In this document: piece by piece, positions 5,189-37,587 of the stretch
How the letters are laid out: each line of letters begins with the position of its first letter
Numbering within the stretch: the first letter of the stretch is position 1
DNA from: Acidimicrobiia bacterium
GTDB lineage: Bacteria; Actinomycetota; Acidimicrobiia; IMCC26256; PALSA-610
Direction: 5' to 3'
Length of the DNA: 64,000 nt
Assembly: GCA_036501845.1 (NCBI GenBank)
Contig: DASXZO010000040.1
Span: 22,568 to 86,567 of the forward strand
Translations under genes and position numbers: made by a program
The notes under the pieces: generated by a model
Database searches by the model: none
Told to the model about the DNA's origin: nothing
Seen by the model: only the letters and a program-made list of their open reading frames with translations

Positions 5189-5249
5189 TCGGCGGGCGAC
5201 GATAACAGCACCACCACGGCGCTACGGCCGGTAGCGTCGCCGCTCGCCG

Positions 5250-6221: not shown

Positions 6222-7720
6222 ACTTCGAGCAACGCGCCGCGCACCGCAGCGATGGCCGCCGCGGTGGCGCCGTGCGCGGCCTCGGCCGGCGATTGACCAG
6301 TGGCCGCCAAGCGGCTCGCGGTGACCACGCCGATGGCATAGCGCAACACGGCTGCACGACGCGGCGCGAGCTCCACCGGCTGACCGAACTGCACGCCCGG
6401 TTGCGACACGAGCGCGGAGTAGAGATCGCGCACAGGCCCGCGCGGCGCGAGTTCGCCCGACGCGGTGCGAAGTCCGAACGACACGATCGACGGCGAATCG
6501 GAGTCGAGCACCACGATTCCCGGCGTGCTGCGAAGTTGCGCCGTGATCGCGGTGCACAGGCGGTGCGTGAAATCGGCTCGCCACACACTCGGGATCGCGC
6601 GGTAGCGATCGAGCTCGCCCAGCCCCACGTGCCATCGGGCGAGCAGGCCGAGGTTGGCGTGCTGCGCCCCCGGCAACATGCCGCGCAACCACCGGGGCAT
6701 GTCGGCCAGCGCGACGATGTGGGCGAAGCCGCGCGGCAACCGCTTCCCACGACTCACCGCGGTCATCGCGCCGTGCATGAGCGCGGCATCGAGCACGATG
6801 GCACCGCAGAACGGTGGCGCGCCGAGGGCCTTCGAGCCGGTGACCATCACCGACGCACCTGCGGCGAGAAAGTCGCGCACCGCCGACGAGGGAACGCGCG
6901 CCTGCGCCGCATCGATCAACACACTCACGTGGGGCGCGCCGCGCGCCCGCCAGATGCGAACCCAGTCGGACGACAGTTGGCGCAGGTCGGTCTTGGAGCC
7001 GGCCATGGCGTGCACGAGCACCTGCTCGCCCCGGTCGAGCGCGTCCTCGATGTGCGCTTCGACCTCGGCCTCCACGTCGAACGCACGGCGAGCGCGGCCA
7101 CGGCGGTCGCGCAACTCCACGTTCACGAGCCGCACGCGATCGGGGTCGACGCCGGTGATCGGCTCGCCGGTGTCGACGTCGCCGCGGAACGGCGTGCGGC
7201 GCGCGAAGTAGCGCCCGAGGGCAGCGTTCACCGTGCCCGAGCCCGACTCCGCCGCGCCGAGCACGATGTTGCAGAGCGACCGATCGCTCGCCGCGAGCAC
7301 GAGACCGGTCGCGATCGACTCGGCGTCGGTGCCTGACGGCGCGAGCACGATCCGCTCCGCGTGGGTGGCGTCAAGCCCGAGGTGCGCAGCGATCCGCGAC
7401 GCGACTGCTTCGTGGAAGGTGTCGGGCGACGGCAGCCGTCCGGCCGAGGTGAGCGAGCGCGCCAGTCCACTCGACCATGCAGCCACGTCGGCAAGCGCCA
7501 CCGTGTCGGGCGGCGTGGCCGTGCACGACGAACCGCGCACGATGGGTTCGCGATCCACGAGGGGAAGGCCGTAGCCATTGCGGGCGGTGCCGGCGCGCGG
7601 CAACTGCCGGTCGTCGCCCCCCACGAGCAGCAGATCCTCGGGCGCGAGCGTGAGCAGTTCGAGCGCACGCGCGGTGCGATCGGGATCCAACGTTGCGAGG
7701 AAGCGATCGGGCGCCGTCAT
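6212..7720 (-). CDS. fold-type I PLP-dependent enzyme, aminotransferase class V-like
   Basis: This is the C-terminal 502 aa of ORF 6212..9172, starting at MTAPDRF. The ATG forms an ATGA overlap with the stop of the upstream decarboxylase. Motifs are SGTDAESIA, LIDAAQ and VTGSKALGAPPFCG (candidate PLP lysine). Confidence 0.65.
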   Translation of the reverse strand: MTAPDRFLATLDPDRTARALELLTLAPEDLLLVGGDDRQLPRAGTARNGYGLPLVDREPIVRGSSCTATPPDTVALADVAAWSSGLARSLTSAGRLPSPDTFHEAVASRIAAHLGLDATHAERIVLAPSGTDAESIATGLVLAASDRSLCNIVLGAAESGSGTVNAALGRYFARRTPFRGDVDTGEPITGVDPDRVRLVNVELRDRRGRARRAFDVEAEVEAHIEDALDRGEQVLVHAMAGSKTDLRQLSSDWVRIWRARGAPHVSVLIDAAQARVPSSAVRDFLAAGASVMVTGSKALGAPPFCGAIVLDAALMHGAMTAVSRGKRLPRGFAHIVALADMPRWLRGMLPGAQHANLGLLARWHVGLGELDRYRAIPSVWRADFTHRLCTAITAQLRSTPGIVVLDSDSPSIVSFGLRTASGELAPRGPVRDLYSALVSQPGVQFGQPVELAPRRAAVLRYAIGVVTASRLAATGQSPAEAAHGATAAAIAAVRGALLEVQV

Positions 7721-9060
7721 GCCGGAGATCCCATCGCGGGCGGCGTGTCGAAGCGGCGGTCGAGGTCGTCGGCCACGGCTTCCGCGGTGAGCGGCACGCC
7801 TCGCAGCATCACGCCGTACGACGCGCCCGCCGCGCCGGCGATCCGCGGCTGTTCGATCGCCCACGCCACATCGGCGAGAAACTCGTCCACCACCTGGCGG
7901 TGCCGCGGGAACACCACGAAGTGCATCGCGTCGGGGTCCGACTGCACGTCGATACGCCAGCCTCGTTGGTGCAACGCCGCGGCCACCGACGGCACCGAGT
8001 GCGAGCCGGAAGCAACTGCGAACACGCTCATCGCCGGCGCGCCGACGACGTCGAAGCCGAGCGAACCGAGGCCGGCTTGCATCCGTCGCGCCGTGCCCAT
8101 CACGTCGTGCGTGACCGCGGCATAACCACTGCGGCCGAGCGCCACCATCGCCGCGAACGCGGCCGCCGCCGGCGCCACCGAGCGGCTTCCGAGCACGCCC
8201 GAAGCCGCGTACGCGCCGCCCGGCCAGTCGAGGTCGATGTGATACGCCGCGCGCCGGAACTCGGGTCGCGCGAAGAGCAGCGCCGACGCCCCCTTCACGC
8301 CGTAGCCGTACTTGTGCAGGTCGACCGCCACGCTCGTGACGCCGTGCACGTCGAGACCGACGCGGGGGGCGCCGTCGACAAAGGGCAGGAACAGACCGCC
8401 GAGCGCGGCATCCACATGCACCGGAACGCCGGCGCGATACGCGGCCGCGGCGATCTCGGCGATCGGGTCGACGGTGCCGAACGGGTAGCAGGGCGCCGAC
8501 AGTCCGATCGCGACCGTGCCGCCGTCGACGGCATCGAGCACCGCTGCGGGGTCGACGGCGCCGCATGCTCCCGCCGGCACGCGCACGAGATCGATGTCGA
8601 GATATTCGGCGGCTTTGCCGAACGCCGGATGGGCTGTGGCCGGCACCACCACGTTCGCACCTTGGTAGCGCGCGTGGTCGCGGTACGCCTTCAGCGCCAC
8701 CATCGTCGATTCCGTGGCCCCCGACGCGAAGATGCCGTACGCCTTGGTGCCCGGCGCGAGCACCGACGCCACCATCGCGAGCACGCCGGCTTCGAACCGC
8801 GCCGCCGACGGGAACGCGGAATGCGACAGCGCGTTCTCGTCGATGAACCGCGTGGCCACCTCGCGCACGAGGCGATGGTGTGCCTCGGGCGAGTCGTACA
8901 CGAGGCTGAACCCGCGCCCGCTGCGCCAATCGAGATCGTCGAGCGCGAGCTCGTCGAGGATGGCGCGCACGCGGTCGCTGTCGACGCCGTTGTCGGGCAG
9001 CGCGCGCAATGTGCCGGCGGCCGCGGCACGAGCCGCATCGTCGATCGTGGTAACCGCCAT
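7717..9060 (-). CDS. PLP-dependent decarboxylase, group II (glutamate decarboxylase / sphingosine-1-phosphate lyase-like)
   Basis: ORF 7717..9090. The ATG at 9060 is preceded by AGGAGGG. Motifs are SGATESTMVALKAY, HVDAALGG and VAVDLHKYGYGVKGAS (the HK PLP motif). Confidence 0.75.
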   Translation of the reverse strand: MAVTTIDDAARAAAAGTLRALPDNGVDSDRVRAILDELALDDLDWRSGRGFSLVYDSPEAHHRLVREVATRFIDENALSHSAFPSAARFEAGVLAMVASVLAPGTKAYGIFASGATESTMVALKAYRDHARYQGANVVVPATAHPAFGKAAEYLDIDLVRVPAGACGAVDPAAVLDAVDGGTVAIGLSAPCYPFGTVDPIAEIAAAAYRAGVPVHVDAALGGLFLPFVDGAPRVGLDVHGVTSVAVDLHKYGYGVKGASALLFARPEFRRAAYHIDLDWPGGAYAASGVLGSRSVAPAAAAFAAMVALGRSGYAAVTHDVMGTARRMQAGLGSLGFDVVGAPAMSVFAVASGSHSVPSVAAALHQRGWRIDVQSDPDAMHFVVFPRHRQVVDEFLADVAWAIEQPRIAGAAGASYGVMLRGVPLTAEAVADDLDRRFDTPPAMGSPA

Positions 9061-9214
9061 CGCCCTCCTGCGGCTTCCGCCGAGCCGCACCGCCGCTCGG
9101 AAGTCTCGCTCGCAGCCTTGCCGGTTGCAAGCGCCTCAGCTCGATCACAGACCGAACCGTCACGGGCGCCACTCTCGCTCCGTGGGCGGCGCGGGTCTAT
9201 GTAGAGTCCGAGCG

Positions 9215-19144: not shown

Positions 19145-20080
19145 TTATTCGCTGTTGTGGCGCCGCGACTGGCGGCGGGGCGACGGCACCACCTCGGTGG
19201 CCACCAGCGTGGCACCCACGGCGACCGGGAGTGTGGAGAGCAGGGCCAGGTCGACGCGATCGGTGCGGGCCACCACGGCGGCCGCGTAGGCCACGAGCGC
19301 GCCCTGGGCGACGACGGCCGTGGCCACCACGAGCCACACCGCATCGCGCGTGGACCGGCGGCGGTTGAATGAGCCGCTCAGCCGTTGCACCACAGCGCGT
19401 GCGAGCGGTTCGAAGAGGATGAAGCCGCACGCAACGATGCCGGCCACCACGTTGTCGCCGCCCTGGGGCCAGCCGGCCGAGATCAGTACCGCCCACCAGA
19501 ACGCGACCGCAACCGCGTACGCGCCGCCGGCTCCCACCCGAACCAACGGCTTGGGAATCAGCAACAACACCGTGAAGATCGCCGCGCCGGCGAGGGCCGG
19601 ACCGGCCGCGCTGCCCGGCGAGATGAACAGCGGCGCGGCGCACGTGATCGCGAGCAACAGCACACCGAGACCTTGCGACGCGTGGCGGCGGTCGAGGTCC
19701 TCGAGCGCGAGCCCGGTGACGACGGCCGCGAGCGCGGCCAGGATGCGAGCCACCACAGGCACAGAGGGAATCGGTGTGACCGCCAACACCACGCCGCCGA
19801 GCACCGGTAGATAGCGCGCGACTGGATGCTCCCACCGCGCCACGATCTCGCCCGCCGCGAACGCCACGCCTGCCGCGATGAAGATGTAGACGGGCGCCGC
19901 CGCCGGCGACAGGTAGTGCCGGATCGTGAACAGGGCGGCGGCGGCCACCGGCAGGCCCACCACTCCCGGCCGCGCCCGGCGCCAGAGCAACGCCGTGGTG
20001 AAGGCGACGAGTGCCGCAACCGCGCCGAGCACGAGCGCGAGCCTCAGCGCGTCGGTGTCGACGTCGACGGCAAGGATCAC
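19145..20080 (-). CDS. hypothetical polytopic membrane protein (about 10-11 TM)
   Basis: GTG start, 311 aa. The protein is almost entirely hydrophobic helices rich in A/V/L/G. It is the last gene of the 26.3->19.1 kb operon. I recognise no family. Confidence 0.5.
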   Translation of the reverse strand: MILAVDVDTDALRLALVLGAVAALVAFTTALLWRRARPGVVGLPVAAAALFTIRHYLSPAAAPVYIFIAAGVAFAAGEIVARWEHPVARYLPVLGGVVLAVTPIPSVPVVARILAALAAVVTGLALEDLDRRHASQGLGVLLLAITCAAPLFISPGSAAGPALAGAAIFTVLLLIPKPLVRVGAGGAYAVAVAFWWAVLISAGWPQGGDNVVAGIVACGFILFEPLARAVVQRLSGSFNRRRSTRDAVWLVVATAVVAQGALVAYAAAVVARTDRVDLALLSTLPVAVGATLVATEVVPSPRRQSRRHNSE

Positions 20081-20092
20081 GGGGGCGAGATC

Positions 20093-20926
20093 CTAGGAGC
20101 CGGTCGCGACGAGGTCGCGGACCAGATCGCACGCCGCGCCAAGGTCGGAGAACACGAGCCGCGCGGTCGTGGCCGACGCCACCAGGCGTTGCACGTCGTC
20201 GAGTGCCGACGAGCCGAAACGCGCGAGGTTCGGTGCCTGGTCGCCCACGATCGCCGCGGCCTCCGATGCCGCGATCGCTTCCACCCGATCATTGGCGGAC
20301 GCGTCGTAGATGGGGAACACGAGTACATCCACGCTCGCCTCGAAGGCGGCCACGGGCGGTGCGATGAACCACACGTCGTCCATGAACAGCGCCACCTGCG
20401 GATGGCAGTTCGGCTCGAAACGCTCGACGAGCGGCCACGAGCCGTGGCGCAACCCGATCGGGCGCGGGAAGCCGCGCAGCGCACAGCGCGCCTCAGCGGC
20501 CACGCCGGCGAGGTCGACCACCGCGATCTCGTCGCTCATGTACTCGGCGCCGCGCTCGCACAAGCCGAGAGCCAGCGTCGACTTGCCCCGGCCCGAACCC
20601 GCGCACAGCACCACGCCCGTGCCGTCGATGCGCACCGCCGCGGCGTGGATCAGGAGGCCGGCGTCGACCGATCGCCACGCGAGCTGGTTCACCTCCCACG
20701 CAAGCCGCTCGAGCGCGAGCGACGCCGGTGCGTCGCGTAACACGGCCACACCGTCGAGTCCGAGCGCCCAGCCGACCTCATCGCTCACCACCTCGAAGCG
20801 ATGCTCAGGTTCGCGGTCGGTTCGGCAGTGCGCGTAGAGCCGATCGATCAGCTCCAACACGTGGACGTCGTCGCTCGCCACGCTGAAGGCCGAGTCGAGC
20901 GCGGCGTAGGCCGCGGCGTCGCTCAC
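20093..20926 (-). CDS. HPr kinase-like (HprK C-terminal domain-related) P-loop protein
   Basis: LIHAAAVRIDGTGVVLCAGSGRGKSTLALGL is the HprK-type P-loop context. The GTG start makes a GTGA overlap with the upstream stop. Confidence 0.65.
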   Translation of the reverse strand: MSDAAAYAALDSAFSVASDDVHVLELIDRLYAHCRTDREPEHRFEVVSDEVGWALGLDGVAVLRDAPASLALERLAWEVNQLAWRSVDAGLLIHAAAVRIDGTGVVLCAGSGRGKSTLALGLCERGAEYMSDEIAVVDLAGVAAEARCALRGFPRPIGLRHGSWPLVERFEPNCHPQVALFMDDVWFIAPPVAAFEASVDVLVFPIYDASANDRVEAIAASEAAAIVGDQAPNLARFGSSALDDVQRLVASATTARLVFSDLGAACDLVRDLVATGS

Positions 20927-22092
20927 GGCGTGCCGTCTTGGCGACGTTGCGCGCCGCGTGATCGTCCGGTGATCAGTCTCGCGGCGCGGCGGGCCCGCGT
21001 GCCGTAACGGTGTTCGCGATCGTCGAGATAGTCGCGATTCGGGAGCGCCAGCGCGCGCACGTACTCGACGCGCGCGCCCAGGCCTTTCACCGCGCGAGCA
21101 CCGGCCAGCATCTGGCCTGCGTAGCTGCGGTCGTCGGTGATGTACGCGTGCAGCAGCTGACGCTCACGACGCGTCGGCCGGTAGCCAAGCGCCCACGCTT
21201 CGCCGGCCAGCGGCGCGTCGAGCGCGAGCGTGGCGCGGGCGAGCAGGATGGCCCGCGCCAGCACGCTGCGCACACCGAGTTCGTCGGACACCGAGATCAC
21301 GCGATCTATATCGACCTCTTGGCTCAAGATCTGGGCCACATCGCGCAACGGCACGAGGCGTGGTGCCGTGCTCCCGAGACACGCGTGCACGGCCGCCGCG
21401 ACCGCGCGCTCCTCGCGCGCAAGGCACTCCACGCTCGAGCCCGCGAGCACGAATGAGTCGGAGCGCCGCCACAGAGCCGACGCGTCGCCCAGGCCGAACG
21501 GCCCGGCTGTGAGCGCGCGGTGCACGTCGAGTTCGAGCCCGTTTGCCGCAGTGAAGCACACGCCCTTGCCGAAGCGCGCCGTGAAGCCGGGGCGCGGCTC
21601 GTCGAAGCGGCGCTGCATTCCGGCCGCGCTCAGGCACGCGGCCACTGCGTCGAACTGTTCGCCCCGAACGAGCACGTCGATGTCGGTGAACGCACGCAGT
21701 TCTGGCTGTTCGTAATCCAGGTGCGCGCACGACGGCCCCTTCAGCACGCGCATGTCGAGGCCGCGCTCGCCCAGGAGGTTGCGCACCACCAAGAGGAACG
21801 ACTCGAGCCGCAGCGTGGCGACCATGGCAGCTTCGTGCACCGCGAGCAGCGCCTCGTGCTGATCGTCACGCAACGACACCAGACCACGGTCGGCGCCGTC
21901 GAGCACGATCCCGGCGAGGTGCTCGTCGGTGAGGCGCGCGAGCAGCGCGTCCCACTCATCGGCCTCGAGCCCAGCCGGCGACGTGGCGGTCGACGCCGCG
22001 GCCAACCCGAGCGCGGCAAAGGGACCGGCCGCGATCGCCATCTGCGACGACGGCGACGGCGGCGGCGGCGGGAGCACGAGGCCCGTGGTCAC
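20923..22092 (-). CDS. nucleotidyltransferase family protein (NTP_transf_5-like)
   Basis: LKGPSCAHLDYEQPELRAFTDIDVLVRGEQFDAV..GLELDVHRAL matches the uncharacterised nucleotidyltransferase family that accompanies HprK-like kinases. The GTG start makes a GTGA overlap with the PqqD-like stop. Confidence 0.6.
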   Translation of the reverse strand: MTTGLVLPPPPPSPSSQMAIAAGPFAALGLAAASTATSPAGLEADEWDALLARLTDEHLAGIVLDGADRGLVSLRDDQHEALLAVHEAAMVATLRLESFLLVVRNLLGERGLDMRVLKGPSCAHLDYEQPELRAFTDIDVLVRGEQFDAVAACLSAAGMQRRFDEPRPGFTARFGKGVCFTAANGLELDVHRALTAGPFGLGDASALWRRSDSFVLAGSSVECLAREERAVAAAVHACLGSTAPRLVPLRDVAQILSQEVDIDRVISVSDELGVRSVLARAILLARATLALDAPLAGEAWALGYRPTRRERQLLHAYITDDRSYAGQMLAGARAVKGLGARVEYVRALALPNRDYLDDREHRYGTRARRAARLITGRSRGAQRRQDGTP

Positions 22093-22382
22093 GACGTGAC
22101 GCGCTCGAGCACACGCGCCGCGGCGAGGCCGCCCACCAGCGTGTCGATCTCGTTCGCAGGCACGCCGGCCGCGGCGGCGAGGTCGGCGCGCGTCGCGCCG
22201 CGTTGCGCGGCGTCGATCACCGATGCTGCGAGCGCGTCCAGGCGGAGCACGCGCACATCCTGGTACACCGACTCAGCCGCGAGACACACCACCATGCCCG
22301 ACGCGACGCGCCGGCGCAGCAGGCGCGGGTTGGTGCGGAACTGCTCGACGGGCCGTGCGGGCTCAGTGCAGGGCGAGGTCAC
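22089..22382 (-). CDS. PqqD-family (RiPP recognition element-like) small protein
   Basis: This is the 3' end of ORF 22089..22694. FRTNPRLLRRRVASGMVVCLAAESVYQDVRVLRLDALAASVIDAAQRGATRADLAAAAGVPANEIDTLVGGLAAARVLERV follows the PqqD pattern: strand, then 'LN..a..iw', then a winged-helix tail. The proposed GTG start at 22382 overlaps the upstream gene by 20 nt. An ATG at 22295 is the alternative. Confidence 0.5.
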   Translation of the reverse strand: MTSPCTEPARPVEQFRTNPRLLRRRVASGMVVCLAAESVYQDVRVLRLDALAASVIDAAQRGATRADLAAAAGVPANEIDTLVGGLAAARVLERVTS

Positions 22383-23226
22383 CGTCGGCCGCTGCCGCCA
22401 CACGGTTGCGGAGCGAGTAGAGCGTCTTGCCCGCGATGACGGCACCTGCGCCCACGAGCACCACAGCTCGGCTGTCGGCGCCGCTGAACGGCAACTTGCT
22501 GTCGCCGCCGACGCCTTCTGCTGCCGCGCCGGTGCCCGACCGCGGCTTGGCGTTCCGTGCGCCGAGCGCGCTGCCCTTCTTCTTCGCAGGACCGGAGCCG
22601 CCACCACTCGTGGCAATCGGCTTCTTCGATGTGGTCTTGGAACCGGGCTTGGCGATCGCGCCCATGCACTTCTGGTCGACGAAGATCGCGACACCGCACT
22701 TGTACGGATGCCCGTTCTTGCCGAAGCCCGAGAACGAGATGCGGTAGAGCTCGTCGGCGAAGAGCCCGGCGGGCACCGTGAAGTGCGCGTCGAACTTGCC
22801 GTCGGGCCCGACGGTGATGGTGCCGAGCACCTTCACGCCCACGAGCGTGACCGTGATCTTGCTGCTCGGGGCCCATCCACTCCCCCACACGTGGATGGAG
22901 TGCGGCAGGTTGAAGAACACCCGCGGGTCACCCTGGCAGGTGGGATACGCCGGCCCCGGGTGGGTGCCGCCACGTGACGTGGTCGTGCTCTCCGGCGGTG
23001 GCGAGCCCGTAGAGCCCGCGGCATACGCCACATCTTCGAAATGCGGCGCCACCCACACCACGACGGCTCCAGCTGCCCCAACTTTCGCCGCCCGTTTTGC
23101 GAGGTCGCGCCGCGACAACCGCCGCTCGCCCTGATCCACGGGCGAAGTCTGGCACGCAGCGTGGTCGCGAGCAAGCTTTTGGCGCCGCGGCGACAGCGCC
23201 GCGCAAGGAGTTCCGCGCCGCGTCAC
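22363..23226 (-). CDS. Tat-signal secreted protein with an Ig-like domain, Lys-rich linker and C-terminal LPFSG + TM + RNR sorting signal
   Basis: The twin-arginine motif is LSRRDLAKRAAKVGAAGAVVVWV..AYA. ITVTLVGVKVLGTITVGPDGKFDAHFTVPAG has a beta-sandwich-like pattern. The C-terminus is KLPFSGADSRAVVLVGAGAVIAGKTLYSLRNR. The start is uncertain (GTG at 23226 or GTG at 23139). Confidence 0.6.
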   Translation of the reverse strand: MTRRGTPCAALSPRRQKLARDHAACQTSPVDQGERRLSRRDLAKRAAKVGAAGAVVVWVAPHFEDVAYAAGSTGSPPPESTTTSRGGTHPGPAYPTCQGDPRVFFNLPHSIHVWGSGWAPSSKITVTLVGVKVLGTITVGPDGKFDAHFTVPAGLFADELYRISFSGFGKNGHPYKCGVAIFVDQKCMGAIAKPGSKTTSKKPIATSGGGSGPAKKKGSALGARNAKPRSGTGAAAEGVGGDSKLPFSGADSRAVVLVGAGAVIAGKTLYSLRNRVAAAADGDLALH

Positions 23227-23232
23227 CGGGCG

Positions 23233-24282
23233 TCAGGGCTCGAGCCGGGCGGCCGAGCGCACGAGGCGGCCTGCCACCGCCCGTTGCACCCGGGCGAGGC
23301 GCCCTCGCGCCGCCACACTGCGGCGGGCCCTGCGCACTGCGCCAGCCGGGCCGAGCCATTCCGATCCCTGCGTGTAGCCGAGCTCGGCGAGCAACGGGCC
23401 CGCCGCGACGTCGAACTCCACCCGCTCGGCCACATTCCAGTCCTGCCAACCCCCCACCCGCCCGCGCCGCACGAAGCCTTCCGGCTCGCGCGCCGCCGAC
23501 TCGTGGGCCGCGGCCTCCCCGCCGATCACGATGCCGCGCTCGCTGGTGCTGGCGCCGAGCGCGAAGCGGTCCAACCGTTCGGCCGCCTCGGAGCCACCCG
23601 GCGCGACACCACAGAACCCGAACACCGCTTCCAACGCCGCCGCGGCCTCGTGGCCACCGGCGCGCAGCACCTCGTAGCGCACTTCGTGGTACGGCCCGAG
23701 CGCCTGGGCTTCGCGAGCCGCCACCACGTAGTTGCGCCAGGTGCGGGCCGCCGCGCCGACCGAGCTCGGCGCGCCCCACGCCTTGCCCCAACCCTGCGAC
23801 GCCGCCACGAGCGAGGCGGCCACGTCACGGCCGTCGCGCACGATGTGCACGAACCGGGCCTGGGGCACATGCCGCGCGATGAGATCGACATGCAGGCTGT
23901 GCGACGGCGTCTTCTCCACCACGATCGTGGCGCCTGGTTTCAGCGCCGCGATCGCGCGCAACACGTCGTTCACGAAGTGGCCGATCTCGGTGTGGAACTC
24001 GGCCTCGGTGAGCACTGCGCCGAGACCGGTGAATCGCCGCTGCTGGCGTTCGGCCACCGAGCCCCGGGCCTCGTAGCGCCAACGCTCCTCGAGCGGCGCG
24101 ACGTATCGCGAGAACAGGTTCGTCTCCTGCGGGCTCACGATCGCGTCGTGCGACGCCAGCAGCGTTTGCAACCACGTGGTGCCACTGCGTGGCGCGCCGA
24201 CCAACGCGATCAATGCCAGCGGTTCGCCCTGGCTGTGCGCAGCGGCGCGCGACGCCGAATCAGACCCGCGAGCCCCGGCCAT
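23233..24282 (-). CDS. sulfotransferase family protein
   Basis: The PAPS 5'-PSB loop is LVGAPRSGTTWLQTLL and the 3'-PB region is FVHIVRDGRDVAASL. The ORF has an ATG start. Confidence 0.75.
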   Translation of the reverse strand: MAGARGSDSASRAAAHSQGEPLALIALVGAPRSGTTWLQTLLASHDAIVSPQETNLFSRYVAPLEERWRYEARGSVAERQQRRFTGLGAVLTEAEFHTEIGHFVNDVLRAIAALKPGATIVVEKTPSHSLHVDLIARHVPQARFVHIVRDGRDVAASLVAASQGWGKAWGAPSSVGAAARTWRNYVVAAREAQALGPYHEVRYEVLRAGGHEAAAALEAVFGFCGVAPGGSEAAERLDRFALGASTSERGIVIGGEAAAHESAAREPEGFVRRGRVGGWQDWNVAERVEFDVAAGPLLAELGYTQGSEWLGPAGAVRRARRSVAARGRLARVQRAVAGRLVRSAARLEP

Positions 24283-24334: not shown

Positions 24335-26266
24335 CTACACGGACGAGACAGTCACCTGCTGCGACGTGGTGCCTTGGACGTTGGAGTCGTCAGTGACGGT
24401 GAGTGTCACCGTGTACGTGCCGTCGGCGGCGTACGAGTACTGCGGCGAGACGCCACTGGCGGTGCCGCCGTCTCCGAAGTTCCACGCGTAGTTCGTGATC
24501 GAACCGCCGTCGGTGTCGGTGGAACCGCTGGCGTCGAACGTGACCGTGTCGCCGCTGGCGACCCAGTTGAACGACGCAGTCGGCGCCTGGTCGACGGTGA
24601 CCTTGTGCGACGTGGAGATCGACGCGCCACGCGCGTTCGTCACTGTGAGCACCACCGTGTAGGTGCCGCGGGTCGTGTATGCGTGGCTGGCCGTGACGCC
24701 GCTCGTGGTGTCGACATTGCCGTCACCGAAGTCCCACGCGTACGTGAGCGCGCTGTCGAGGTTGAGCGACGACGAGCCGTCGACGTTGACGGTGAGGCTG
24801 CTGGTCAGCGCCGAGAACGCCGCGGTGGGCGGGATGGTCACGAGGCACGCCGAACCCGTCGCGTTCTGGATGGCGTTGAGTGCCGTCACCAACTTGGCCT
24901 TCACCGCCGCGTACGCGGGATTGGCATGCTGCGACATGAGCTCGTACGGGTCATGCAGGAGGTCGTAGAGCTCCTCCTCCTTGGTGGTGTGCAACACGTA
25001 CTTCCAGTTCGTGGTGCGCACGCAGCGGTACCCGGAGTCGTCGATCATCACCGCCCGGTCGAGCCCGAGCTCCGGATGCGCCACGTAGTCGACCAGGGAG
25101 CGCCCGTCGAACGTGCGCCCCACCGGGGTGGCACCCGCGAGCGCGCAGATCGTCGGCGCGAAGTCGACACCTGAGCACACCGAGTTGATCGTGGTCCCGG
25201 CCGGGAATCCTGGCCCCATGATGTACAGCGGCACGCGGGCCGATTCCTCGTACACCACACTCTTGCCCCACGGAACGCGGTGTTCGCCCTTCATGAAGCC
25301 GTTGTCAGACGTGAAGATCACGACGGTGTTGGCGATGTCGGAACCGAGCGCCGTGAGCAGTGCGTCGATCGAGTCGTCGGCACCCATGAGCGCGAGCAAG
25401 CGTTGGCGCTCGCCGCTGGCGATGCTGTTGATCCTGCTGGCGGGGAGCAGTGCGAGCTTGCGGATCGCCTTCGGCTTGTCGCTCACGTCGAGCTCGTTGA
25501 AGTTTGGCCGCCAGTTGGGCGTGAACGGCTTGAGCAGCTTGCCGTAGACCGACTCCACCATGCCGCTGCCCTGGTGGTTCGCAGTGTTGCCCATGTAGAA
25601 GAACAGCGGCTTCGTCGAGTTCGCGCGCCAGCGCGCCATCATCGTGCGGGCGCGGTTCGCGTTCTCGACCTCGATGTAGCCCTTGCCGCTTTCGAGGTGG
25701 CCGTTGTTGTTGATCTGCCACTTCACATAGTTCGCGCCAGCTCCCGAACCCGTGGAGCAGTGGCCCTCGAAGTCGTCCCACCCCGGCGGCACAGCGTCGT
25801 TGTTCTGGAACGAGTTCAGGAACTTCCCGAGACCGGCCGTGTAGTAGCCGGCCGTCTGCAACCACACCGGCAGTTGCGCGGGGCTGTGCAACACCGGGTC
25901 GCCGACATTGTTCGCGTTGCTGATGGCGCGGTGGTTGCGTACGTACTCGCCCGTGATGAAGCTCGCGCGCGAGGGCTGGCACAGCGGGCGCGACGTCATG
26001 AAACCGTCGAAGTAGGTGGCCTGGTTGAACAGGCGCGCCGTGGTCTTCGACATGATCCACGTCTCGTCGAAGCGCTCGTCGTCGGTGCAGATCCACACGA
26101 TGTTCGGGCCTGCGCCACCACCTGAGCCGCCACTCGCGCCGGCGCGCGTCGCCGCGACACCGTCGACGAGCGGTGCCAGCGCCGCGCCCGCGGCAGCCGC
26201 GCCGGTCGCCTGCATGAACCTGCGACGCGTCAGCCGCGGCATGCCACGGCCCCCGCGCGATCCCAT
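24335..26266 (-). CDS. Tat-exported formylglycine-type sulfatase with two C-terminal PKD domains
   Basis: The Tat signal is TRRRFMQATGAAAAGAALA. The sulfatase signature is NIVWICTDDERFDE..RPLCQPSRASFITGEY. Two PKD-like repeats are present: YAWDFGDGN..TYTVVLTVTNARG and YAWNFGDGG..TYTVTLTVTDDSN. An alternative start is the ATG at 26242. Confidence 0.85.
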   Translation of the reverse strand: MGSRGGRGMPRLTRRRFMQATGAAAAGAALAPLVDGVAATRAGASGGSGGGAGPNIVWICTDDERFDETWIMSKTTARLFNQATYFDGFMTSRPLCQPSRASFITGEYVRNHRAISNANNVGDPVLHSPAQLPVWLQTAGYYTAGLGKFLNSFQNNDAVPPGWDDFEGHCSTGSGAGANYVKWQINNNGHLESGKGYIEVENANRARTMMARWRANSTKPLFFYMGNTANHQGSGMVESVYGKLLKPFTPNWRPNFNELDVSDKPKAIRKLALLPASRINSIASGERQRLLALMGADDSIDALLTALGSDIANTVVIFTSDNGFMKGEHRVPWGKSVVYEESARVPLYIMGPGFPAGTTINSVCSGVDFAPTICALAGATPVGRTFDGRSLVDYVAHPELGLDRAVMIDDSGYRCVRTTNWKYVLHTTKEEELYDLLHDPYELMSQHANPAYAAVKAKLVTALNAIQNATGSACLVTIPPTAAFSALTSSLTVNVDGSSSLNLDSALTYAWDFGDGNVDTTSGVTASHAYTTRGTYTVVLTVTNARGASISTSHKVTVDQAPTASFNWVASGDTVTFDASGSTDTDGGSITNYAWNFGDGGTASGVSPQYSYAADGTYTVTLTVTDDSNVQGTTSQQVTVSSV

Positions 26267-29168: not shown

Positions 29169-29523
29169 GGGCCTCGCCGCCGGGTGCAAATCGCCCAATA
29201 CACCCCGGGGGCGACGAGGACCGCTTCGACGTACACCGCTGTGGGCGTTCGGGCCCGCTACGAGATTGTTTCGCCGCGGTTTCGAAATACTTGACACGCG
29301 CCTCAACGCGAGCACAACATGGCGCCGGCTGGACCGATCGAAGTCGATCGGATTGGCGGCGGCGGAGGCACTCCAAGGCCGAAAACTTGGGGGGAACTGA
29401 AGACCACGGGGCGGCACGCCCACGGTTCGGGCGCAAGCGAACGGGATCTAGCTCCTCACCAAACATCCATGAGATCGGCTCGCGGCCAGGCCGAACTCGG
29501 TACCGACAGAGGAGACACATCAC

Positions 29524-30522
29524 GTGAAAATTTCCAAGTGGCTGGCTGCGGGTTCCGCAGTAGTCGCACTCGGCGGGGCCGGTTTCCTGGCTGTGCCGAA
29601 CGCGTCGGCCAGCACTCCGACCATCACCGCAGGCCCGGGGAGCCACGTGCACTGCACGTTCTCGGCCGTGGCGAAGTTGAGCCCCGGTCTGCTGAACGAC
29701 TGGACGCAGTCCGACCACTCGAACGACACCTCGGCTCCCAACGCCACACAGAAGGCTGCGATCGCGTCGATCCCCAACACGACGTACGCCGCGAATAGCG
29801 GCGCACCCACCGTGGTCCAGACGGCGACCAAGGGTGCAACGATCAGCTGTTCGGCTTCGACAGTGGTGGACGCAACTAACACGAGCCTGACCGACACCAT
29901 CACGGGCGGCTCGATCGCGTCGACCGCGAGCAGCGCGGGCACCGACGAGGCGACGTGCGCCGGTTTGCTGAACCAGACCGGTTCGACGCAGTTCACCACG
30001 ATCATCAAGTGGACGGGTACGACCGCCAAGATCAACCCCACCACGGTGACGACGACGCTGCAAGCGCTCGCCGACATCGGCACTGACGGTGTGGGCTTCG
30101 AGCTTTCGGCCGACACTCGTTCCAGTGACTCGTCGGCTCAGAAGTTCGGCTCGATCGCCGGCTCCTTCGCCGGTGGCGTGACCGACACCAAGGCGTACAT
30201 CGACGGCGTCACGTTGACGTCGATCCTCGCCGGTCCGGCAACGCTGACCACCGACCCGAGCGACAGCAACGTCGGTCCGATCCCGCCGGGCTTGTGCCAG
30301 CCGTCGATCCAGGTGAAGGCCGGTTCGAATGCTCCTGGTGTGAGCGACTCGGTGGCCATCAAGGTGAAGAAGAACAAGGGCCTGAAGTCGATCACGCTGG
30401 CCGACAACAGTGGCCAGGGTGCGGTCTTCGCTCCGACCCCGGCCAACTCGAACCTCGACCTCTGCGTTGGTCCGCAGACGTCGTGCCCGCGGCCCACTGC
30501 ACCGGCACCGCCGGCATCGTGA
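29524..30522 (+). CDS. Sec-signal secreted Ser/Thr-rich protein, function unknown
   Basis: GTG start. The signal is MKISKWLAAGSAVVALGGAGFLAVPNASA. The mature part is very rich in S/T/A/G with paired Cys and ends in a Pro-rich tail, CPRPTAPAPPAS. Confidence 0.6.
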   Translation: MKISKWLAAGSAVVALGGAGFLAVPNASASTPTITAGPGSHVHCTFSAVAKLSPGLLNDWTQSDHSNDTSAPNATQKAAIASIPNTTYAANSGAPTVVQTATKGATISCSASTVVDATNTSLTDTITGGSIASTASSAGTDEATCAGLLNQTGSTQFTTIIKWTGTTAKINPTTVTTTLQALADIGTDGVGFELSADTRSSDSSAQKFGSIAGSFAGGVTDTKAYIDGVTLTSILAGPATLTTDPSDSNVGPIPPGLCQPSIQVKAGSNAPGVSDSVAIKVKKNKGLKSITLADNSGQGAVFAPTPANSNLDLCVGPQTSCPRPTAPAPPAS

Positions 30523-32763: not shown

Positions 32764-32792
32764 TTGACTCCTCAACAGCGCGGGCGTATGTT
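32764..32792 (+). promoter_or_regulatory. candidate sigma-70-type promoter for the first RTX gene
   Basis: TTGACT (32764-32769), a 17-nt spacer, then TATGTT (32787-32792), lying 68 nt upstream of the ATG at 32860. Confidence 0.3.
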
Positions 32793-32859
32793 CGATCACG
32801 GCTGGACGGGCACGGCCTCGATAAGAGGTAGGCGGATTTCTCGTAGGGGGAAGTGCCCA

Positions 32860-35142
32860 ATGCGTTCTGTTCTCACGCGATTCAGCGCGCTCGCGTCCTC
32901 GCTGTTTCTCATCACGTCGATGGTGATTTTGCACGGTGTGCCCAGTGCGTCGGCTACATCGACGACCTGCCCGGCGACGACACCCGACGGATTCGCCGGC
33001 ATCATCGACGGGACCCCGGGCAACGACACGCTCACCGCGCCTGACGATCAGAACTGGGTCATTTGCGGCGAGGCCGGCGACGACACGATCACCGGCGGCG
33101 GCGGTGACGACCTGATCTACGGCGGCGATGGCGACGACGTCATCCACGGCGGGGCGGGGAACGACACCATCGACGACACCCAGGGTGCCAACACGATCTA
33201 CGGCGACGACGGCGACGACTTCCTCTGTGAATTGCCGGTGTTCTGTGGGCCGGCGCCAACCACCACCCCGGCGTCAACCCTCGACGGCGGCAACGGCAAC
33301 GACACCCTCTGGGGCAGCGCCGGCAACGACGTTCTGAGTGGCGACGCCGGGAACGACAGCATGATGAGCGGGACCGGCAACGACACGGTGACGGGCGGCG
33401 ACGGCAACGACTCGCTCGGCAACCTCGGCGGGACCGACACACTTGACGGCGGTGACGGCGACGACACCATCGGCACCGCCCTCGCCACCTCGCCGATCGT
33501 CGGCGGCAATGGAAACGACACGATCATTGTGAGTGATTCGTCAGTCGTCGCAACGCTGGGCAGCGGCGGAGTCGGATCGGCCACGATGGGAAGCGTGACG
33601 ATTGAACTCGACGGCTTCGAGAACCTCACCGGTGGCCCCGGGAACGACACCCTCACGGGCGACAGCGGGAGCAACATCATCAGCGGCGGTGGTGGCAACG
33701 ACACGATCATCGCGACCGCAGGCGGCGACACCCTCAACGGTGGCGACGGGAACGACACGTTCAACGAGGGATCGGCAAGCAACGGCGCCGACGCGATCAA
33801 CGGCGGCGACGGCAACGACACCGTCGACTACTCCGGCCGCACCACGAGCGTGTGCATCGATATGGACGGGAGCACGCCCAGCGGCGCGACCACTACCGAC
33901 TGCTCGACTGGAGTCACGGAAGGCGACACCATCGGCACCGACGTCGAAAACGCGAAGGGCGGATCGGCGAACGACACGATCATCGGTAACGCGAACGCGA
34001 ACACGATTACGGGTGGCCTCGGCAACGACACGCTGAGCGGCGGCGACGGCAACGACACCTTCAGCGAAGGCAGCGCCACGAACGGAGCCGACACGATCAG
34101 CGGCGGCAATGGTGAAGACAGTGTCGATTACTCGGGCCGCACGAGTGCCGTGTGTATCGACCTCGACGGAAGCACTTCGAGTGGCCAGACGAGCAACAAC
34201 TGCGCCTCAGGTGTGAGTGAAGGCGACATCATCGGCAGCGACGTCGAGGACGCGACCACGGGCAGTGGCGCCGACACGATCATTGGCAACTCGTCCGACA
34301 ACACCCTCGCCGGCAAGGCCGGTGCCGACAACATCACAGGTGGCGCCGGTAACGACACGATCAATGGGGGCTCAGGCAGTGACACGTTGTCCGGCGGGGG
34401 CGACCTTGGTGACCTGCTCGACGACTCGGGCCTGACGTCGGGCGTCAGCATCACCCTCTCACTCAGCCCAACGACGAACGAAGACGTGACCCATACCGAC
34501 GGGTCCGTCACCGGATTCCAAAACGTGCGTGGCAGCAGCGGGAGCGACACGCTCACAGGCGACGACGATGCAAACCTGCTCGGCGGCAACAACGGCGACG
34601 ACACCATCTCTGGCGGCAATGGCGACGACACCATCGACGGCGGGGCCGGAAACGACACCATCGACGGTGGTTCTGGCAACGACTCGCTCGCGGGCTCGCA
34701 GGGCAACGACACGATCACCGGAGATGACGGTGACGACAACGTGCAGCCTGGCGCCGGCACGAACAGCGTCGACGGCGGCACGGGCACCAACACGCTGAAT
34801 TACGCCTCTATCGCAACGGGAGTCGTTGTGGACCTCGCGGCCGGCACCACCACCGGAGGCGCGACCGACACGATCCTCCACGATTCCTTCATTGATGTCA
34901 TCGGCTCTGGCGGCGACGACACGCTCACCGGCGACGCCCAAGACAACGTGATCAACGGTGGAGGCGGCGACGACTTCCTCTACGGCGGTGACGGTAACGA
35001 CACGCTGAACGGTGGCGACGGCAACGACCAAATCACAGGTGAGAACGGCACCGACGTAGGTGCCGGTGGAAACGGTACCGACTCCTGCGATTTCGCAACG
35101 ACCGAGACGACTACGAGCTGCGAAAGCTCGTGGACGCCGTAA
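32860..35142 (+). CDS. Sec-signal RTX-type (hemolysin-type calcium-binding repeat) protein
   Basis: The ATG at 32860 is preceded by GTAGGGGGA. The signal is MRSVLTRFSALASSLFLITSMVILHGVPSASA. Dozens of GGxGNDTLxG nonapeptide repeats follow. The C-terminus is CDFATTETTTSCESSWTP. Confidence 0.8.
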   Translation: MRSVLTRFSALASSLFLITSMVILHGVPSASATSTTCPATTPDGFAGIIDGTPGNDTLTAPDDQNWVICGEAGDDTITGGGGDDLIYGGDGDDVIHGGAGNDTIDDTQGANTIYGDDGDDFLCELPVFCGPAPTTTPASTLDGGNGNDTLWGSAGNDVLSGDAGNDSMMSGTGNDTVTGGDGNDSLGNLGGTDTLDGGDGDDTIGTALATSPIVGGNGNDTIIVSDSSVVATLGSGGVGSATMGSVTIELDGFENLTGGPGNDTLTGDSGSNIISGGGGNDTIIATAGGDTLNGGDGNDTFNEGSASNGADAINGGDGNDTVDYSGRTTSVCIDMDGSTPSGATTTDCSTGVTEGDTIGTDVENAKGGSANDTIIGNANANTITGGLGNDTLSGGDGNDTFSEGSATNGADTISGGNGEDSVDYSGRTSAVCIDLDGSTSSGQTSNNCASGVSEGDIIGSDVEDATTGSGADTIIGNSSDNTLAGKAGADNITGGAGNDTINGGSGSDTLSGGGDLGDLLDDSGLTSGVSITLSLSPTTNEDVTHTDGSVTGFQNVRGSSGSDTLTGDDDANLLGGNNGDDTISGGNGDDTIDGGAGNDTIDGGSGNDSLAGSQGNDTITGDDGDDNVQPGAGTNSVDGGTGTNTLNYASIATGVVVDLAAGTTTGGATDTILHDSFIDVIGSGGDDTLTGDAQDNVINGGGGDDFLYGGDGNDTLNGGDGNDQITGENGTDVGAGGNGTDSCDFATTETTTSCESSWTP

Positions 35143-35262
35143 CGCAGACGAGAAGTTGAACACCTAGCGCGCGGTTGCGGACCGGCCGTCGTCGCCCGAC
35201 AACGGCAGGCACGGGCCGCACACAGCCGGGACGCAAGTCCCTTTCTCACAGGGGTGCTACTC

Positions 35263-37587
35263 ATGCGACCATTGCTCGCGCGCCTCAGCGCGCTCGCGTC
35301 CGCAACATTTCTGCTCACCTCAATCGTGATGCTGCACGGCATGACTGCCGCGTCTGCTTCGGTGACCGCGTGTCCGTCGGCTTCGCCGCCGCCTGGATAC
35401 ACGGTGCTCATGGGCACCGAGGGCAACGACACCATCACGGTGCCGACCGGCAACTACCTCGTGTGCGCACTCGGTGGTGACGACACGATCGCCACCGGCT
35501 CCGGCGTCGACCTCATCTATGGCGGCGAGGGCAACGACAGCATCGTGCTCACAGGAGCGAACGGGTGCCCGTTCGCCGCCGATCAGTATTACGGCGAGGA
35601 CGGTTCCGACACGATCGGCAACGCCTACATCGGCAACCTATCGAGCGGCGTCGTGTACGGCACAACCCGGTGCGGCTTCACGAGCACCATCGAGAACCTC
35701 ACCGGCACCGCGGGCAGCGACACGCTGATCGGCGACTCGAATGCCAACGTGCTCAACGGCGGTGACGGCAACGACACCATCACCGGGAATGGTGGTGGCG
35801 ACACCCTCGTCGGTGGCAACGGCTCTGACACGCTCGACGACTCGGGCCAAACCGTCGCGCTCAACATCGACCTCACCAACGCGACCGACCAGGACCAGAG
35901 CCCGACCGAGACCGACGTCGCAACCGGCTTCGAGAATGTCAACGGTGGCTCGGCCGACGACACGATCACCGGCGACACCAACAACAACGTGCTGAACGGC
36001 AACGCGGGCAACGACACGATTCATAGCGGCAGTGGCGGCGACAGGATCAGTGGCGGGAGTGGCAACGACACGTTGTACGGCGACGACGGCAACGACACGT
36101 TCTACGAAGACACGGCCAGCAACGGCGCCGACACGTTCCACGGCGGCGCCGGGAACGACATGGTCGACTACTCCGACCGTACGAGCAGCGTGTGCATCGA
36201 CATGGACGGCAGCTCGTCGAGCGGCGCGACCACTGGCAACTGTTCGACCGGCGTGACCGAGGGCGACACGATCGGCAGCGACGTGGAGTGGGCGAAGGGC
36301 GGCGCCGGGAACGACACGATCATCGGCAACTCGCTCGACAACAACCTCTACGGCGGCGCTGGGAGCGACACCATATTCGGGCTCACCGGGAACGACACGA
36401 TCAGGGGCCAGGCCGGCGCAGACACGCTCTACGCCGACACCTCTAGCGTCGGCGGAGAGCCCGGCGACACGCTCGACGACAGCGACCAGTCGAACGACCT
36501 GAACATCACGGTGTCGCAGTCTCCAACCGCGAACGAGGACGGCGGGTCGACGCCGGCGGACTCCTGGGCGTCGGGATTCGAGAACATCCGCACCGGCAAC
36601 GGAGACGACACGATCAACGGCGATGCCAACACGAACTCGTTGGTCGGCGGCGCCGGTAACGACACCATCAATGGCAACGACGGCGACGACAACCTCAACG
36701 GCGGTTCCGGCAACGACTTCATCGACGGCGGGAACGGCAACGACACTCTCAGCGGAGCGACCGGTGACGATGCACTGACCGGAGACGCGGGGAACGACAC
36801 CGTCATACCGAGCGCCGGCAACGACAATCCGGTCGATGGCGGTTCGGGTACGAACACACTCGACTACTCGGCCCAGACCGGCTCCGTGAACGTGAACCTC
36901 GCGGCCGGCACGGAGACCAGCGCAGCCGGCAACGACACGATCGTGGCAAATACCTTCCAGATCCTGGATGGTGGCTCGGCCAACGACGTGCTGACCGCCG
37001 ACAACGGCGACACCATCAACGGCAACAGCGGCGACGACACGATCAACGGAGGCAGCGGCAACGACACCTTGAATGGTGGCGTCGGCAACGACACCATCGA
37101 CGCTGGTGCGGGCAACGACACCATCAACGGCGGCACCGGCGACGACACGATCACCGCCGATGCCGGCGACGACACGATCCTTACCAGCGCGGGCAACAAC
37201 AGCGTCGACGGCGGCTCGGGCTCGGACACACTCGACTACTCGAGCCAGGGTTCTGCGCTCACCGCGAATCTCGCGACCGGCACCGTCACGCCTGCGAACG
37301 CCACCTTCACCGACACGATCCTCAACGACTCGATCGAGAACGTGAACGGCGGGAGCGGCGCCGACACCATCACGGGCGACGCGCAAGCGAACGTGCTCAA
37401 CGGCAACGGCGGCGCCGACTTCCTGTATGGCGGTGACGGCAACGACGCGCTCAATGGCGGCAACGGCGGCGACCACATCACGGGACAGGGCGGCACCGAC
37501 ACCGCCGACGGCGGTACAAGCATCGACTTCTGCGACTTCGCTACCACCGAGACCACCACGAACTGCGAGAACTCATGGACGCCGTGA
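35263..37587 (+). CDS. Sec-signal RTX-type calcium-binding repeat protein, paralog of 32860..35142
   Basis: I chose the ATG at 35263 by analogy: MRPLLARLSALASATFLLTSIVMLHGMTAASA. The repeats are of the same GGxGNDTIxG type. The C-terminus is CDFATTETTTNCENSWTP. Confidence 0.8.
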   Translation: MRPLLARLSALASATFLLTSIVMLHGMTAASASVTACPSASPPPGYTVLMGTEGNDTITVPTGNYLVCALGGDDTIATGSGVDLIYGGEGNDSIVLTGANGCPFAADQYYGEDGSDTIGNAYIGNLSSGVVYGTTRCGFTSTIENLTGTAGSDTLIGDSNANVLNGGDGNDTITGNGGGDTLVGGNGSDTLDDSGQTVALNIDLTNATDQDQSPTETDVATGFENVNGGSADDTITGDTNNNVLNGNAGNDTIHSGSGGDRISGGSGNDTLYGDDGNDTFYEDTASNGADTFHGGAGNDMVDYSDRTSSVCIDMDGSSSSGATTGNCSTGVTEGDTIGSDVEWAKGGAGNDTIIGNSLDNNLYGGAGSDTIFGLTGNDTIRGQAGADTLYADTSSVGGEPGDTLDDSDQSNDLNITVSQSPTANEDGGSTPADSWASGFENIRTGNGDDTINGDANTNSLVGGAGNDTINGNDGDDNLNGGSGNDFIDGGNGNDTLSGATGDDALTGDAGNDTVIPSAGNDNPVDGGSGTNTLDYSAQTGSVNVNLAAGTETSAAGNDTIVANTFQILDGGSANDVLTADNGDTINGNSGDDTINGGSGNDTLNGGVGNDTIDAGAGNDTINGGTGDDTITADAGDDTILTSAGNNSVDGGSGSDTLDYSSQGSALTANLATGTVTPANATFTDTILNDSIENVNGGSGADTITGDAQANVLNGNGGADFLYGGDGNDALNGGNGGDHITGQGGTDTADGGTSIDFCDFATTETTTNCENSWTP

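Follow-up and report, generated by a model that had tools for sequence, protein, structure and literature searches.

What is the substrate of the recognition protein, kinase and nucleotidyltransferase that are encoded side by side in a 64,000-nucleotide stretch of DNA (hereafter, the window) from an Acidimicrobiia bacterium (GenBank assembly GCA_036501845.1, contig DASXZO010000040.1, positions 22,568 to 86,567 of the forward strand)? The three genes, for a PqqD-type recognition element (RRE) of RiPPs (ribosomally synthesized peptides with post-translational modifications), an NTP_transf_5 nucleotidyltransferase and an HprK-like P-loop kinase, are contiguous on the minus strand with 4-nt start/stop overlaps, in actinobacterial sequence of ∼70% G+C. 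Beside them lies the gene for a larger protein, and an earlier sequence-only reading of the window had suggested that this protein is a protein-sized partner of the RRE, modified in the cytoplasm before export by the twin-arginine translocation (Tat) route. That suggestion is supported by comparative genomics. We put the probability at roughly 60% that the protein encoded at 22363-23139 on the minus strand is the cognate substrate of a cassette resembling the one that makes linear polyphosphorylated peptides (LPPs), a reading drawn from conserved synteny, a leader shared across lineages, RRE-leader fusions, reverse look-ups and the analogy with LPPs themselves.

The precursor protein is encoded within an open frame of 287 codons (22363-23226, minus strand), and 287 residues was the length first assigned to it. 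In a frame plot of G+C at third codon positions (GC3), the coding signal of this open reading frame (ORF) is clear only from ∼22990 to 22360, and the high-GC3 frame passes to that of the PqqD-like gene at ∼22390-22360. The codon equivalent to V30 is the start or the alignment origin in all 16 homologs, and is an ATG in P0002, P0003, P0005, P0014 and P0016. Because the homologs begin at this codon, the product is most likely 258 amino acids (aa) long, running from GTG 23139 to the stop at 22363, and the longer form is probably an overextension. The family is small, being present in 4 of 185,579 species-representative genomes, all of them Acidimicrobiia or Actinomycetota metagenome-assembled genomes. 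Word-indexed homolog searches with the target, the kinase and a membrane protein encoded downstream of the kinase returned close relatives alone.

Judged by profile match, the small ORF that follows the precursor gene (22089-22382, minus strand; 97 aa from GTG 22382) is a PqqD-type RRE. A profile of six orthologs matched the PqqD proteins of related triads in hhalign with 96.5% probability (E 9e-10), and those proteins match TIGR04353. Its best matches among PDB entries were the PqqD structures 5sxy (E 8.6e-6) and, next, 3g2b (E 5e-4); TfuB1, a lasso B1 protein, ranked lower (E 0.2). The orthologs at L002 and L007 have weak matches to Pfam PqqD (PF05402). Syntenic orthologs of the small ORF occur in six loci. 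Its conserved part begins upstream of ATG 22295, so that the start is GTG 22382 or GTG 22403, giving an overlap with the 3′ end of the precursor gene of 20 or 41 nt, respectively. This overlap, to which the sequence-only reading had drawn attention, does exist, at ∼20 nt, but it is absent from the more distant locus L002, where the two genes are separate, and it is ordinary operon packing without further significance. The nucleotidyltransferase gene (20923-22092, minus strand; Pfam PF14907, E 2.3e-30) overlaps the PqqD-like gene through a GTGA start/stop, and its profile found no match in the PDB. The kinase (20093-20926, minus strand) matches Pfam Hpr_kinase_C (E 1.9e-5), has TIGR04352 HprK_rel_A as its best family match (E 5e-27) and finds HPr kinases as its best PDB matches. 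As a set, the three enzymes are no novelty, since NCBIfam has models for an ‘HPr-rel-A system’ (TIGR04352, HprK-related kinase A; TIGR04353, PqqD family peptide chaperone), from which the proteins here differ in that all of their scores fall under the curated cutoffs.

The order of target, PqqD-like, NTP_transf_5, HprK-like and ‘mem’ genes, the last encoding the downstream membrane protein, is kept in six of six distinct Acidimicrobiia loci, including those whose target has diverged to 44% identity or less. An alignment of the HprK-like proteins was scanned against metagenomes, yielding 80 loci, and a leader hidden Markov model (HMM) was built from the N-terminal 50 residues of the target family only. 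The first, unexpanded leader HMM already matched unrelated cargo adjoining HprK/PqqD genes in many of these loci, in other lineages. After iteration its matches came to 59 ORFs, distributed over 40 of the 82 distinct HprK loci with one to four in each. Where both flanks of the kinase gene extend for at least 2.5 kb, which is so at 23 loci, a leader ORF was present in 16, a PqqD gene in 22 and an NTP_transf_5 gene in 20. Within the 64-kb window the target is the only match to the leader HMM, and the Tat signal of a neighboring sulfatase is left unmatched.

The leader comprises the first 40 residues of the precursor (23020-23139), in which an n-region of Tat type and an h-region are followed by AYA as a cleavage-type site. 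Its mean pairwise identity within the target family is 0.73, above that of the folded domain (0.64). The Tat-type features of the target were recognized by eye (LSRRDLAK, core and AYA) and are conserved. The twin arginines of LSRRDLAK, noted from the beginning (23107-23112; R39-R40 in ORF numbering, R10-R11 in the 258-aa form), are kept in every homolog whose N-terminus is included. Across the wider set, RR is found in 49 of 49 unique leader ORFs, in good Tat context (e.g. RREFLRK, SRRKMLKR), and in 45 of the 49 the hydrophobic core contains [W/Y]xxPx[LIVFAM], with a site of AxA type after it. Among the Tat-like ORFs of these data that lack the leader, 0 of 29 have the motif. We rejected the explanation that the shared leader is no more than a generic Tat signal or an effect of profile drift on three grounds, namely the unrelated cargo matched before expansion, the unmatched sulfatase and the absence of the motif from the other 29 signals. 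In the target the motif reads W-V-A-P-H-F (23038-23055; [W/Y]xxPx[LIVFA]) and, lying in the h-region of the signal peptide, is a putative RRE docking site. We consider the N-terminal leader, which carries WxxPxF, to be the probable recognition element, and not the C-terminal tail.

Downstream of the motif, spacing is also preserved. In collapsed leaders counted from the aromatic residue, Phe occupies +13 in 12 of 38, Ala is found at +12 and +14, Ser occupies +17 in 15 of 38 (Ser or Thr in 55%), and Pro occupies +18 in 12 of 38. The target has a GSP motif whose Ser is 17 residues past the Trp; this residue, S75 (+17; Ser46 of the 258-aa protein; 23002-23004), and P76 (+18) are nearly invariant, and the Ser is a candidate phospho-acceptor.

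What follows the leader varies from locus to locus. Some cargo proteins are rich in Ser, Thr and Pro, and two separate groups have LPXTG or LAXTG anchors. At L037, L040, L049, L052, L057, L063, L039 and L041 the cargo is ∼100 residues long with 14-18 cysteines, in up to three paralogs per locus, and at L008:7423-7650, L009:9559-9816, L055, L068, L082, L083 and L085 there are peptides of 75-85 aa with an RR / YxxPxV leader. These peptides have a conserved core, GNNGVGNG...PPGNPPINDGPG, and the cargo in the proteobacterial cassettes is rich in Gly, Asn and Pro and ∼40 residues long. These proteobacterial NTP_transf_5, PqqD and HprK-like cassettes sit outside polysaccharide loci.

At five loci a single ORF combines a PqqD domain with both an RR-leader and cargo (L059:4556-5137, L067:3548-4030, L079:5019-5486, L081:1099-1941 and L090:5039-5518). 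Each fusion has an N-terminal PqqD domain, an internal RR-leader without the Trp or Tyr, and low-complexity cargo consisting of Thr/Pro runs or GNNPGGN repeats. Loss of the aromatic residue might be expected in these proteins because the binder is attached in cis. At L030:1284-1673, a PqqD-domain protein itself begins with a Tat-like DRREFIKTG signal.

The association was also approached from the side of the precursor. A full HMMER search with the target alignment against 1.84 billion representative proteins returned 327 matches at E≤1e-3. Among the best 150 of the 327, 40 have an RR...WxxP leader, and L[PA]x[TS]G is present at the C-terminal end of 31 of these 40; most of the 40 place GSP at +16 to +18, and many library matches consist of nothing but the leader, GSPPP, a Ser/Thr/Pro linker and an anchor. 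Genomic context was informative for four of the leader+LPXTG proteins, with the contexts of P0053 and P0057 being left out as their contigs were too short. In three of the four (P0164, P0063 and P0076) a gene matching Pfam PqqD is directly adjacent, and in one of these three an HprK/ScmC-like gene comes next. The fourth, P0109, has a radical SAM/SPASM gene in place of PqqD.

LPPs, whose occurrence has been described as confined to Bacillota (Popov et al., Nat Commun 2026; PMC13381572), provide the analogy for how such a cassette could work. The precursors in their clusters are 35-200 aa long, have the leader consensus YxxPxVLxHQxIxFETxxS and are acted on by an RRE together with an HprK-like kinase and an NTP transferase; crystal structures, pull-downs and NMR identify [Y/W]xxP as the RRE-binding determinant, and [W/Y]xxP is also the experimentally defined RRE-binding motif of lasso leaders (PMC13381572). 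The LPP kinase adds several phosphates to core Ser3, 18 residues past the Tyr, and the clusters, which are located in capsule loci, carry a SipW-like peptidase and an ABC exporter (PMC13381572). The resemblance to the window is extensive. [quoted passage not shown] The two are not identical, however. The HQ and ET positions of the LPP consensus are not common to the leaders here, and the target reads WxxPxF...AYA..GSP. Unlike the LPP clusters, the window has neither a SipW-like leader peptidase nor an MsbA-like exporter: there was no S24/S26 Pfam match among the window genes scanned, and none in L001, L002 or L007, and no ABC transporter Pfam match among the window genes scanned or in related loci. 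The leader here instead has a twin-arginine n-region and an AxA site and is Tat-like, and the cargo, from Acidimicrobiia, has a mature length of 218 aa, an Ig-like domain and an anchor of sortase type.

A second described system also shares neighboring genes. Directly upstream of the precursor lies a sulfotransferase gene (23233-24282, minus strand; Pfam Sulfotransfer_3, E 6.6e-29), and the sequence-only reading had grouped its product with the kinase and nucleotidyltransferase as cytoplasmic modifying enzymes. This is indeed the known tailoring set of paeninodin-type lasso clusters, in which a Ser of the linear precursor is polyphosphorylated by the kinase and the phosphate receives hexoses from the nucleotidyltransferase (PMC8498205). 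The sulfotransferase, though, is accessory and outside the cassette core, being present in L001 and absent from L002. As in the paeninodin and pseudomycoidin clusters, an HPr-kinase homolog, a nucleotidyltransferase, a sulfotransferase and a PqqD-type B1 protein occur in one cluster here; unlike in them, the substrate is protein-sized with a signal peptide, the C-terminus is Arg or His where theirs supplies the acceptor Ser, and there is no Asn-synthetase-like macrolactam cyclase and no transglutaminase-like B2 protease. Neither of the latter was found in the window or in L001, L002, L007, L008 and L009, where the only Asn_synthase match is a 229-aa QueC-type protein, and with both enzymes missing, a lasso-peptide cluster was rejected.

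Export signals on RiPP-type precursors have a precedent in the DUF2282 precursors, which pair with DUF2063-associated RREs and carry an export signal peptide (PMC12710340). Theirs are Sec signals without a predicted RRE-binding motif, in contrast to the Tat-type signal containing [W/Y]xxP described here. We take the DUF2282/DUF2063 systems to be of the MNIO/bufferin type, with enzymology that differs from that of the present cassette. A literature search, in a library that was incomplete, found no paper linking twin-arginine leaders with PqqD/RRE proteins or with this cassette.

Several observations weigh against the assignment of the precursor as the substrate. As a single sequence, the PqqD-like protein has no Pfam or NCBIfam match, PqqD_rel_X included, and the kinase scores 94.7 bits against TIGR04352, below its cutoff of 200 bits. 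No leader-HMM match was found in 7 of the 23 well-flanked loci, at least four of which have the fused form. Both the profile search and the iterated leader HMM are in part circular, finding again some of the features that went into them, and the sequences are phylogenetically related, so that motif counts overstate independence. The Ser at +17 is found in only ∼40% of collapsed leaders. In the LPP system, the nucleotidyltransferase showed no activity in a heterologous host (PMC13381572). Two further points concern the leader as an export signal: the leader of the target fails the curated cutoffs, scoring below threshold with both Pfam TAT_signal and TIGR01409, and the RR-leader is internal in the fused forms, where it need not act as a Tat signal.

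These last two points, together with the fact that no tat genes were seen in the window, favor an explanation in which the RR N-terminus is solely a RiPP-type leader and not a working Tat signal, with the protein being processed or exported in another way or staying tethered to the membrane by its C-terminal helix. We regard this as unlikely, though it survives better than the other rivals. S/T-R-R-x-F/L-x-K fits many family members, RREFLRK and SRRKMLKR among them, and the weakly hydrophobic core and the basic residue before the AxA site fit a Tat signal. The cargo is of an extracytoplasmic type, with LPXTG/LAXTG anchors, Cys-rich domains and S/T/P linkers. The leader of one relative, P0063, does pass NCBIfam TAT_signal_seq (TIGR01409; 20.2 bits, cutoff 16.7), and while no NCBIfam substrate-family model matches the leader proteins, the only weak NCBIfam matches that recur among them are to Tat-signal models.

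The rest of the precursor bears on another explanation. The AlphaFold2 (AF2) model is confident only for residues ∼93-190 (22657-22950, minus strand), which form an all-beta Ig-like sandwich with a predicted local distance difference test score (pLDDT) above 90; a Foldseek search returned generic Ig-like sandwiches only (SoxYZ, neocarzinostatin, CopC; E ∼4e-4). The Ig-like segment proposed in the sequence-only reading is thereby borne out, and the Lys-rich linker that it described is also present, as a Lys/Gly-rich region of poor conservation (mean pairwise identity 0.31). So are all parts of the C-terminal signal, in which KLPFSG is followed by a hydrophobic helix, then RNR and finally a tail of 12 residues. 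The pentapeptide LPFSG (22480-22494) had been viewed as deviating from sortase motifs, whereas it now appears as a minor variant: the 16 family members have LPFTG (nine), LPFSG (three), LPNTG, EQFSG and VPAAG (one each) or no such motif (one), and wider relatives show LAFTG, LPVTG and similar. The segment after it, with the helix, RNR and the tail (VAAAADGDLALH; 22366-22479), is conserved. Of the two elements whose conservation the sequence-only reading had wanted checked, the tail is conserved and LPFSG varies.

Helix and tail identities are 0.76 and 0.73, both above that of the folded domain, with G249, D251, R253, L257, G259, G261, A262, G266, L269, Y270, L272, R273 and R275 invariant. They are unchanged where the pentapeptide is gone (P0007 and P0011; 2-3 family members). 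Generic signal peptides and sortase stop-transfer segments are seldom this conserved. As the leader, the helix and the tail all exceed the Ig-like domain in conservation, the pattern points to specific recognition at both ends of the precursor. The short leader+anchor proteins P0076, P0101, P0161 and P0164 end in a conserved cytoplasmic D-P/S-x-D-E-T-x-R, which parallels the tail ADGDLAL(R/H) conserved in the target family.

With its N-terminal signal, L-P/A-x-T/S-G, hydrophobic segment and basic residues, the precursor resembles LPXTG/LAXTG sortase substrates, and it differs from them in its strongly conserved helix and in the conserved 12-residue tail with acidic residues that follows RNR. 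We would class this signal as sortase-type, but with a helix more conserved than is usual and with conservation of the tail as well. An NCBIfam LPXTG-anchor model (TIGR01167-type) had no match at E≤1 in the target or seven relatives. In agreement with the sequence-only reading, no sortase Pfam match was found in any window gene scanned, nor within ±10 kb in related loci; a TLxTC-type regular-expression search, a weak test, gave nothing credible. The precursor could be an ordinary sortase-anchored Ig-domain surface protein, with the cassette acting on something else, such as an unannotated short peptide or a polysaccharide or lipid carrier of the locus. The canonical LPFTG of most homologs, followed by a hydrophobic segment and basic residues, speaks for this, as does the richness of the locus in polysaccharide genes, and the rarity of the family makes synteny alone weak evidence. 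We nonetheless rank this explanation as improbable, after the preceding one. Outside polysaccharide loci, in other phyla and on unrelated cargo, this leader is again found with the cassette; it bears a known RRE-binding motif and is fused to PqqD domains, and the leader HMM found no other leader-type ORF in the window.

TorD, DmsD and NapD are small cytoplasmic proteins that bind a twin-arginine signal and delay export until maturation is done. Their likeness to the PqqD-like protein would be a functional analogy only, as the fold is unrelated, the binder here being a PqqD/RRE domain, and maturation here would be a covalent side-chain modification and not cofactor insertion. That the PqqD-like protein is such a Tat-signal chaperone and nothing more, with the kinase and nucleotidyltransferase acting on glycan precursors, is the least likely of the three rivals: the docking motif does lie in the signal core, where binding would mask the signal, and the role of the nucleotidyltransferase is unproven even in LPPs, but the HprK-like kinase accompanies leader proteins irrespective of a glycan locus, homologous kinases phosphorylate a peptide Ser in the LPP and paeninodin systems, and a Ser-Pro is conserved at fixed spacing from the docking motif.

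If the precursor is the cassette’s substrate, the sequence of binding, phosphorylation at an acceptor site, Tat export and anchoring that we infer would run as follows. The N-terminal 40 residues would serve as a Tat-type signal peptide and a RiPP-style leader at once. The RRE would grip WVAPHF in the hydrophobic core of the signal and offer the junction region to the kinase, and its binding would probably hide the signal from the Tat machinery. The kinase would phosphorylate a Ser just past the AxA site, for which Ser46 in GSP is the best candidate and Ser43 an alternative, and the nucleotidyltransferase may then extend the phosphate with sugar or nucleotide-derived groups from the surrounding polysaccharide locus. 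The modified protein would exit via the Tat route, which suits a folded protein carrying a bulky adduct, and would be processed by general signal peptidase. Use of Tat and general signal peptidase would explain the missing SipW-like peptidase and ABC exporter. Retention at the surface would rely on the LPXTG-type signal, the conserved helix and the tail, possibly with ‘mem’.

The ‘mem’ gene (19145-20080, minus strand) encodes a polytopic membrane protein of 311 aa whose family is unassigned. It is present in all six distinct target-family loci and in no other HprK locus, and because it co-occurs only with this cargo family, it may be a partner of the LPXTG-type cargo. The protein is predicted to be nearly all-helical, with 12 helices in a low-confidence AF2 model (8-sequence alignment, pLDDT 42), and its conserved motifs include D-x-x-H-A-x-x-G and L-x-E-P-L-x-R. 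Its sole Pfam match is a weak one to TgpA_N (E 0.0019); a profile search of the PDB found no match, and there was no exosortase or CPBP match. In two of the target-family loci (L002:12965-13300 and L005:12906-13223) a second PqqD-like gene, which is not in the window, lies between the HprK-like gene and ‘mem’.

Further features of the window lie around the cassette. Directly upstream of the sulfotransferase gene, 24335-26266 (minus strand) encodes the sulfatase with a Tat-type signal, which has two C-terminal PKD domains, and a second sulfatase at 3-1331 runs off the window start. The glycosyltransferase-rich part also contains genes for a TupA-like ATP-grasp protein (5235-6218, plus strand) and a pyridoxal phosphate-dependent decarboxylase (7720-9135, minus strand). 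Just past the UDP-glucose dehydrogenase gene, 29473-30519 (plus strand) encodes a predicted secreted protein of 349 aa with no Pfam family. Two adjacent genes (32764-35139 and 35143-37584, both plus strand) each encode a large RTX-repeat (HemolysinCabind) protein, in which 13 and 16 stretches, respectively, were matched as repeats.

More tentatively, and with odds that we hold to be below even, the precursor may represent a widespread and undescribed class, in which a Tat signal is also a RiPP-type leader, an RRE bound to [W/Y]xxP in the signal core acts as both recruiter and hold-back chaperone, the kinase and NTP_transf_5 protein build a phosphate-based adduct on a Ser at a set spacing, and the product is exported by Tat. 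Since the Acidimicrobiia cargo would be a wall-anchored Ig-domain protein inside a polysaccharide locus, its phospho-Ser tip may be an attachment or priming point for a surface glycopolymer. If this is true, RRE-guided tailoring would reach beyond small secreted peptides to full-size, Tat-exported, surface-anchored proteins, and one signal peptide would be both an export address and an enzyme-recruitment leader. The uncharacterized HprK-like/NTP_transf_5/PqqD triads of soil metagenomes would gain a concrete substrate class, one that includes the families with 14-18 cysteines and the short Gly/Asn/Pro-rich peptides, along with a docking motif of defined sequence and a candidate for the acceptor Ser. 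Protein phospho-glycosylation may then be linked to capsule or exopolysaccharide biology.

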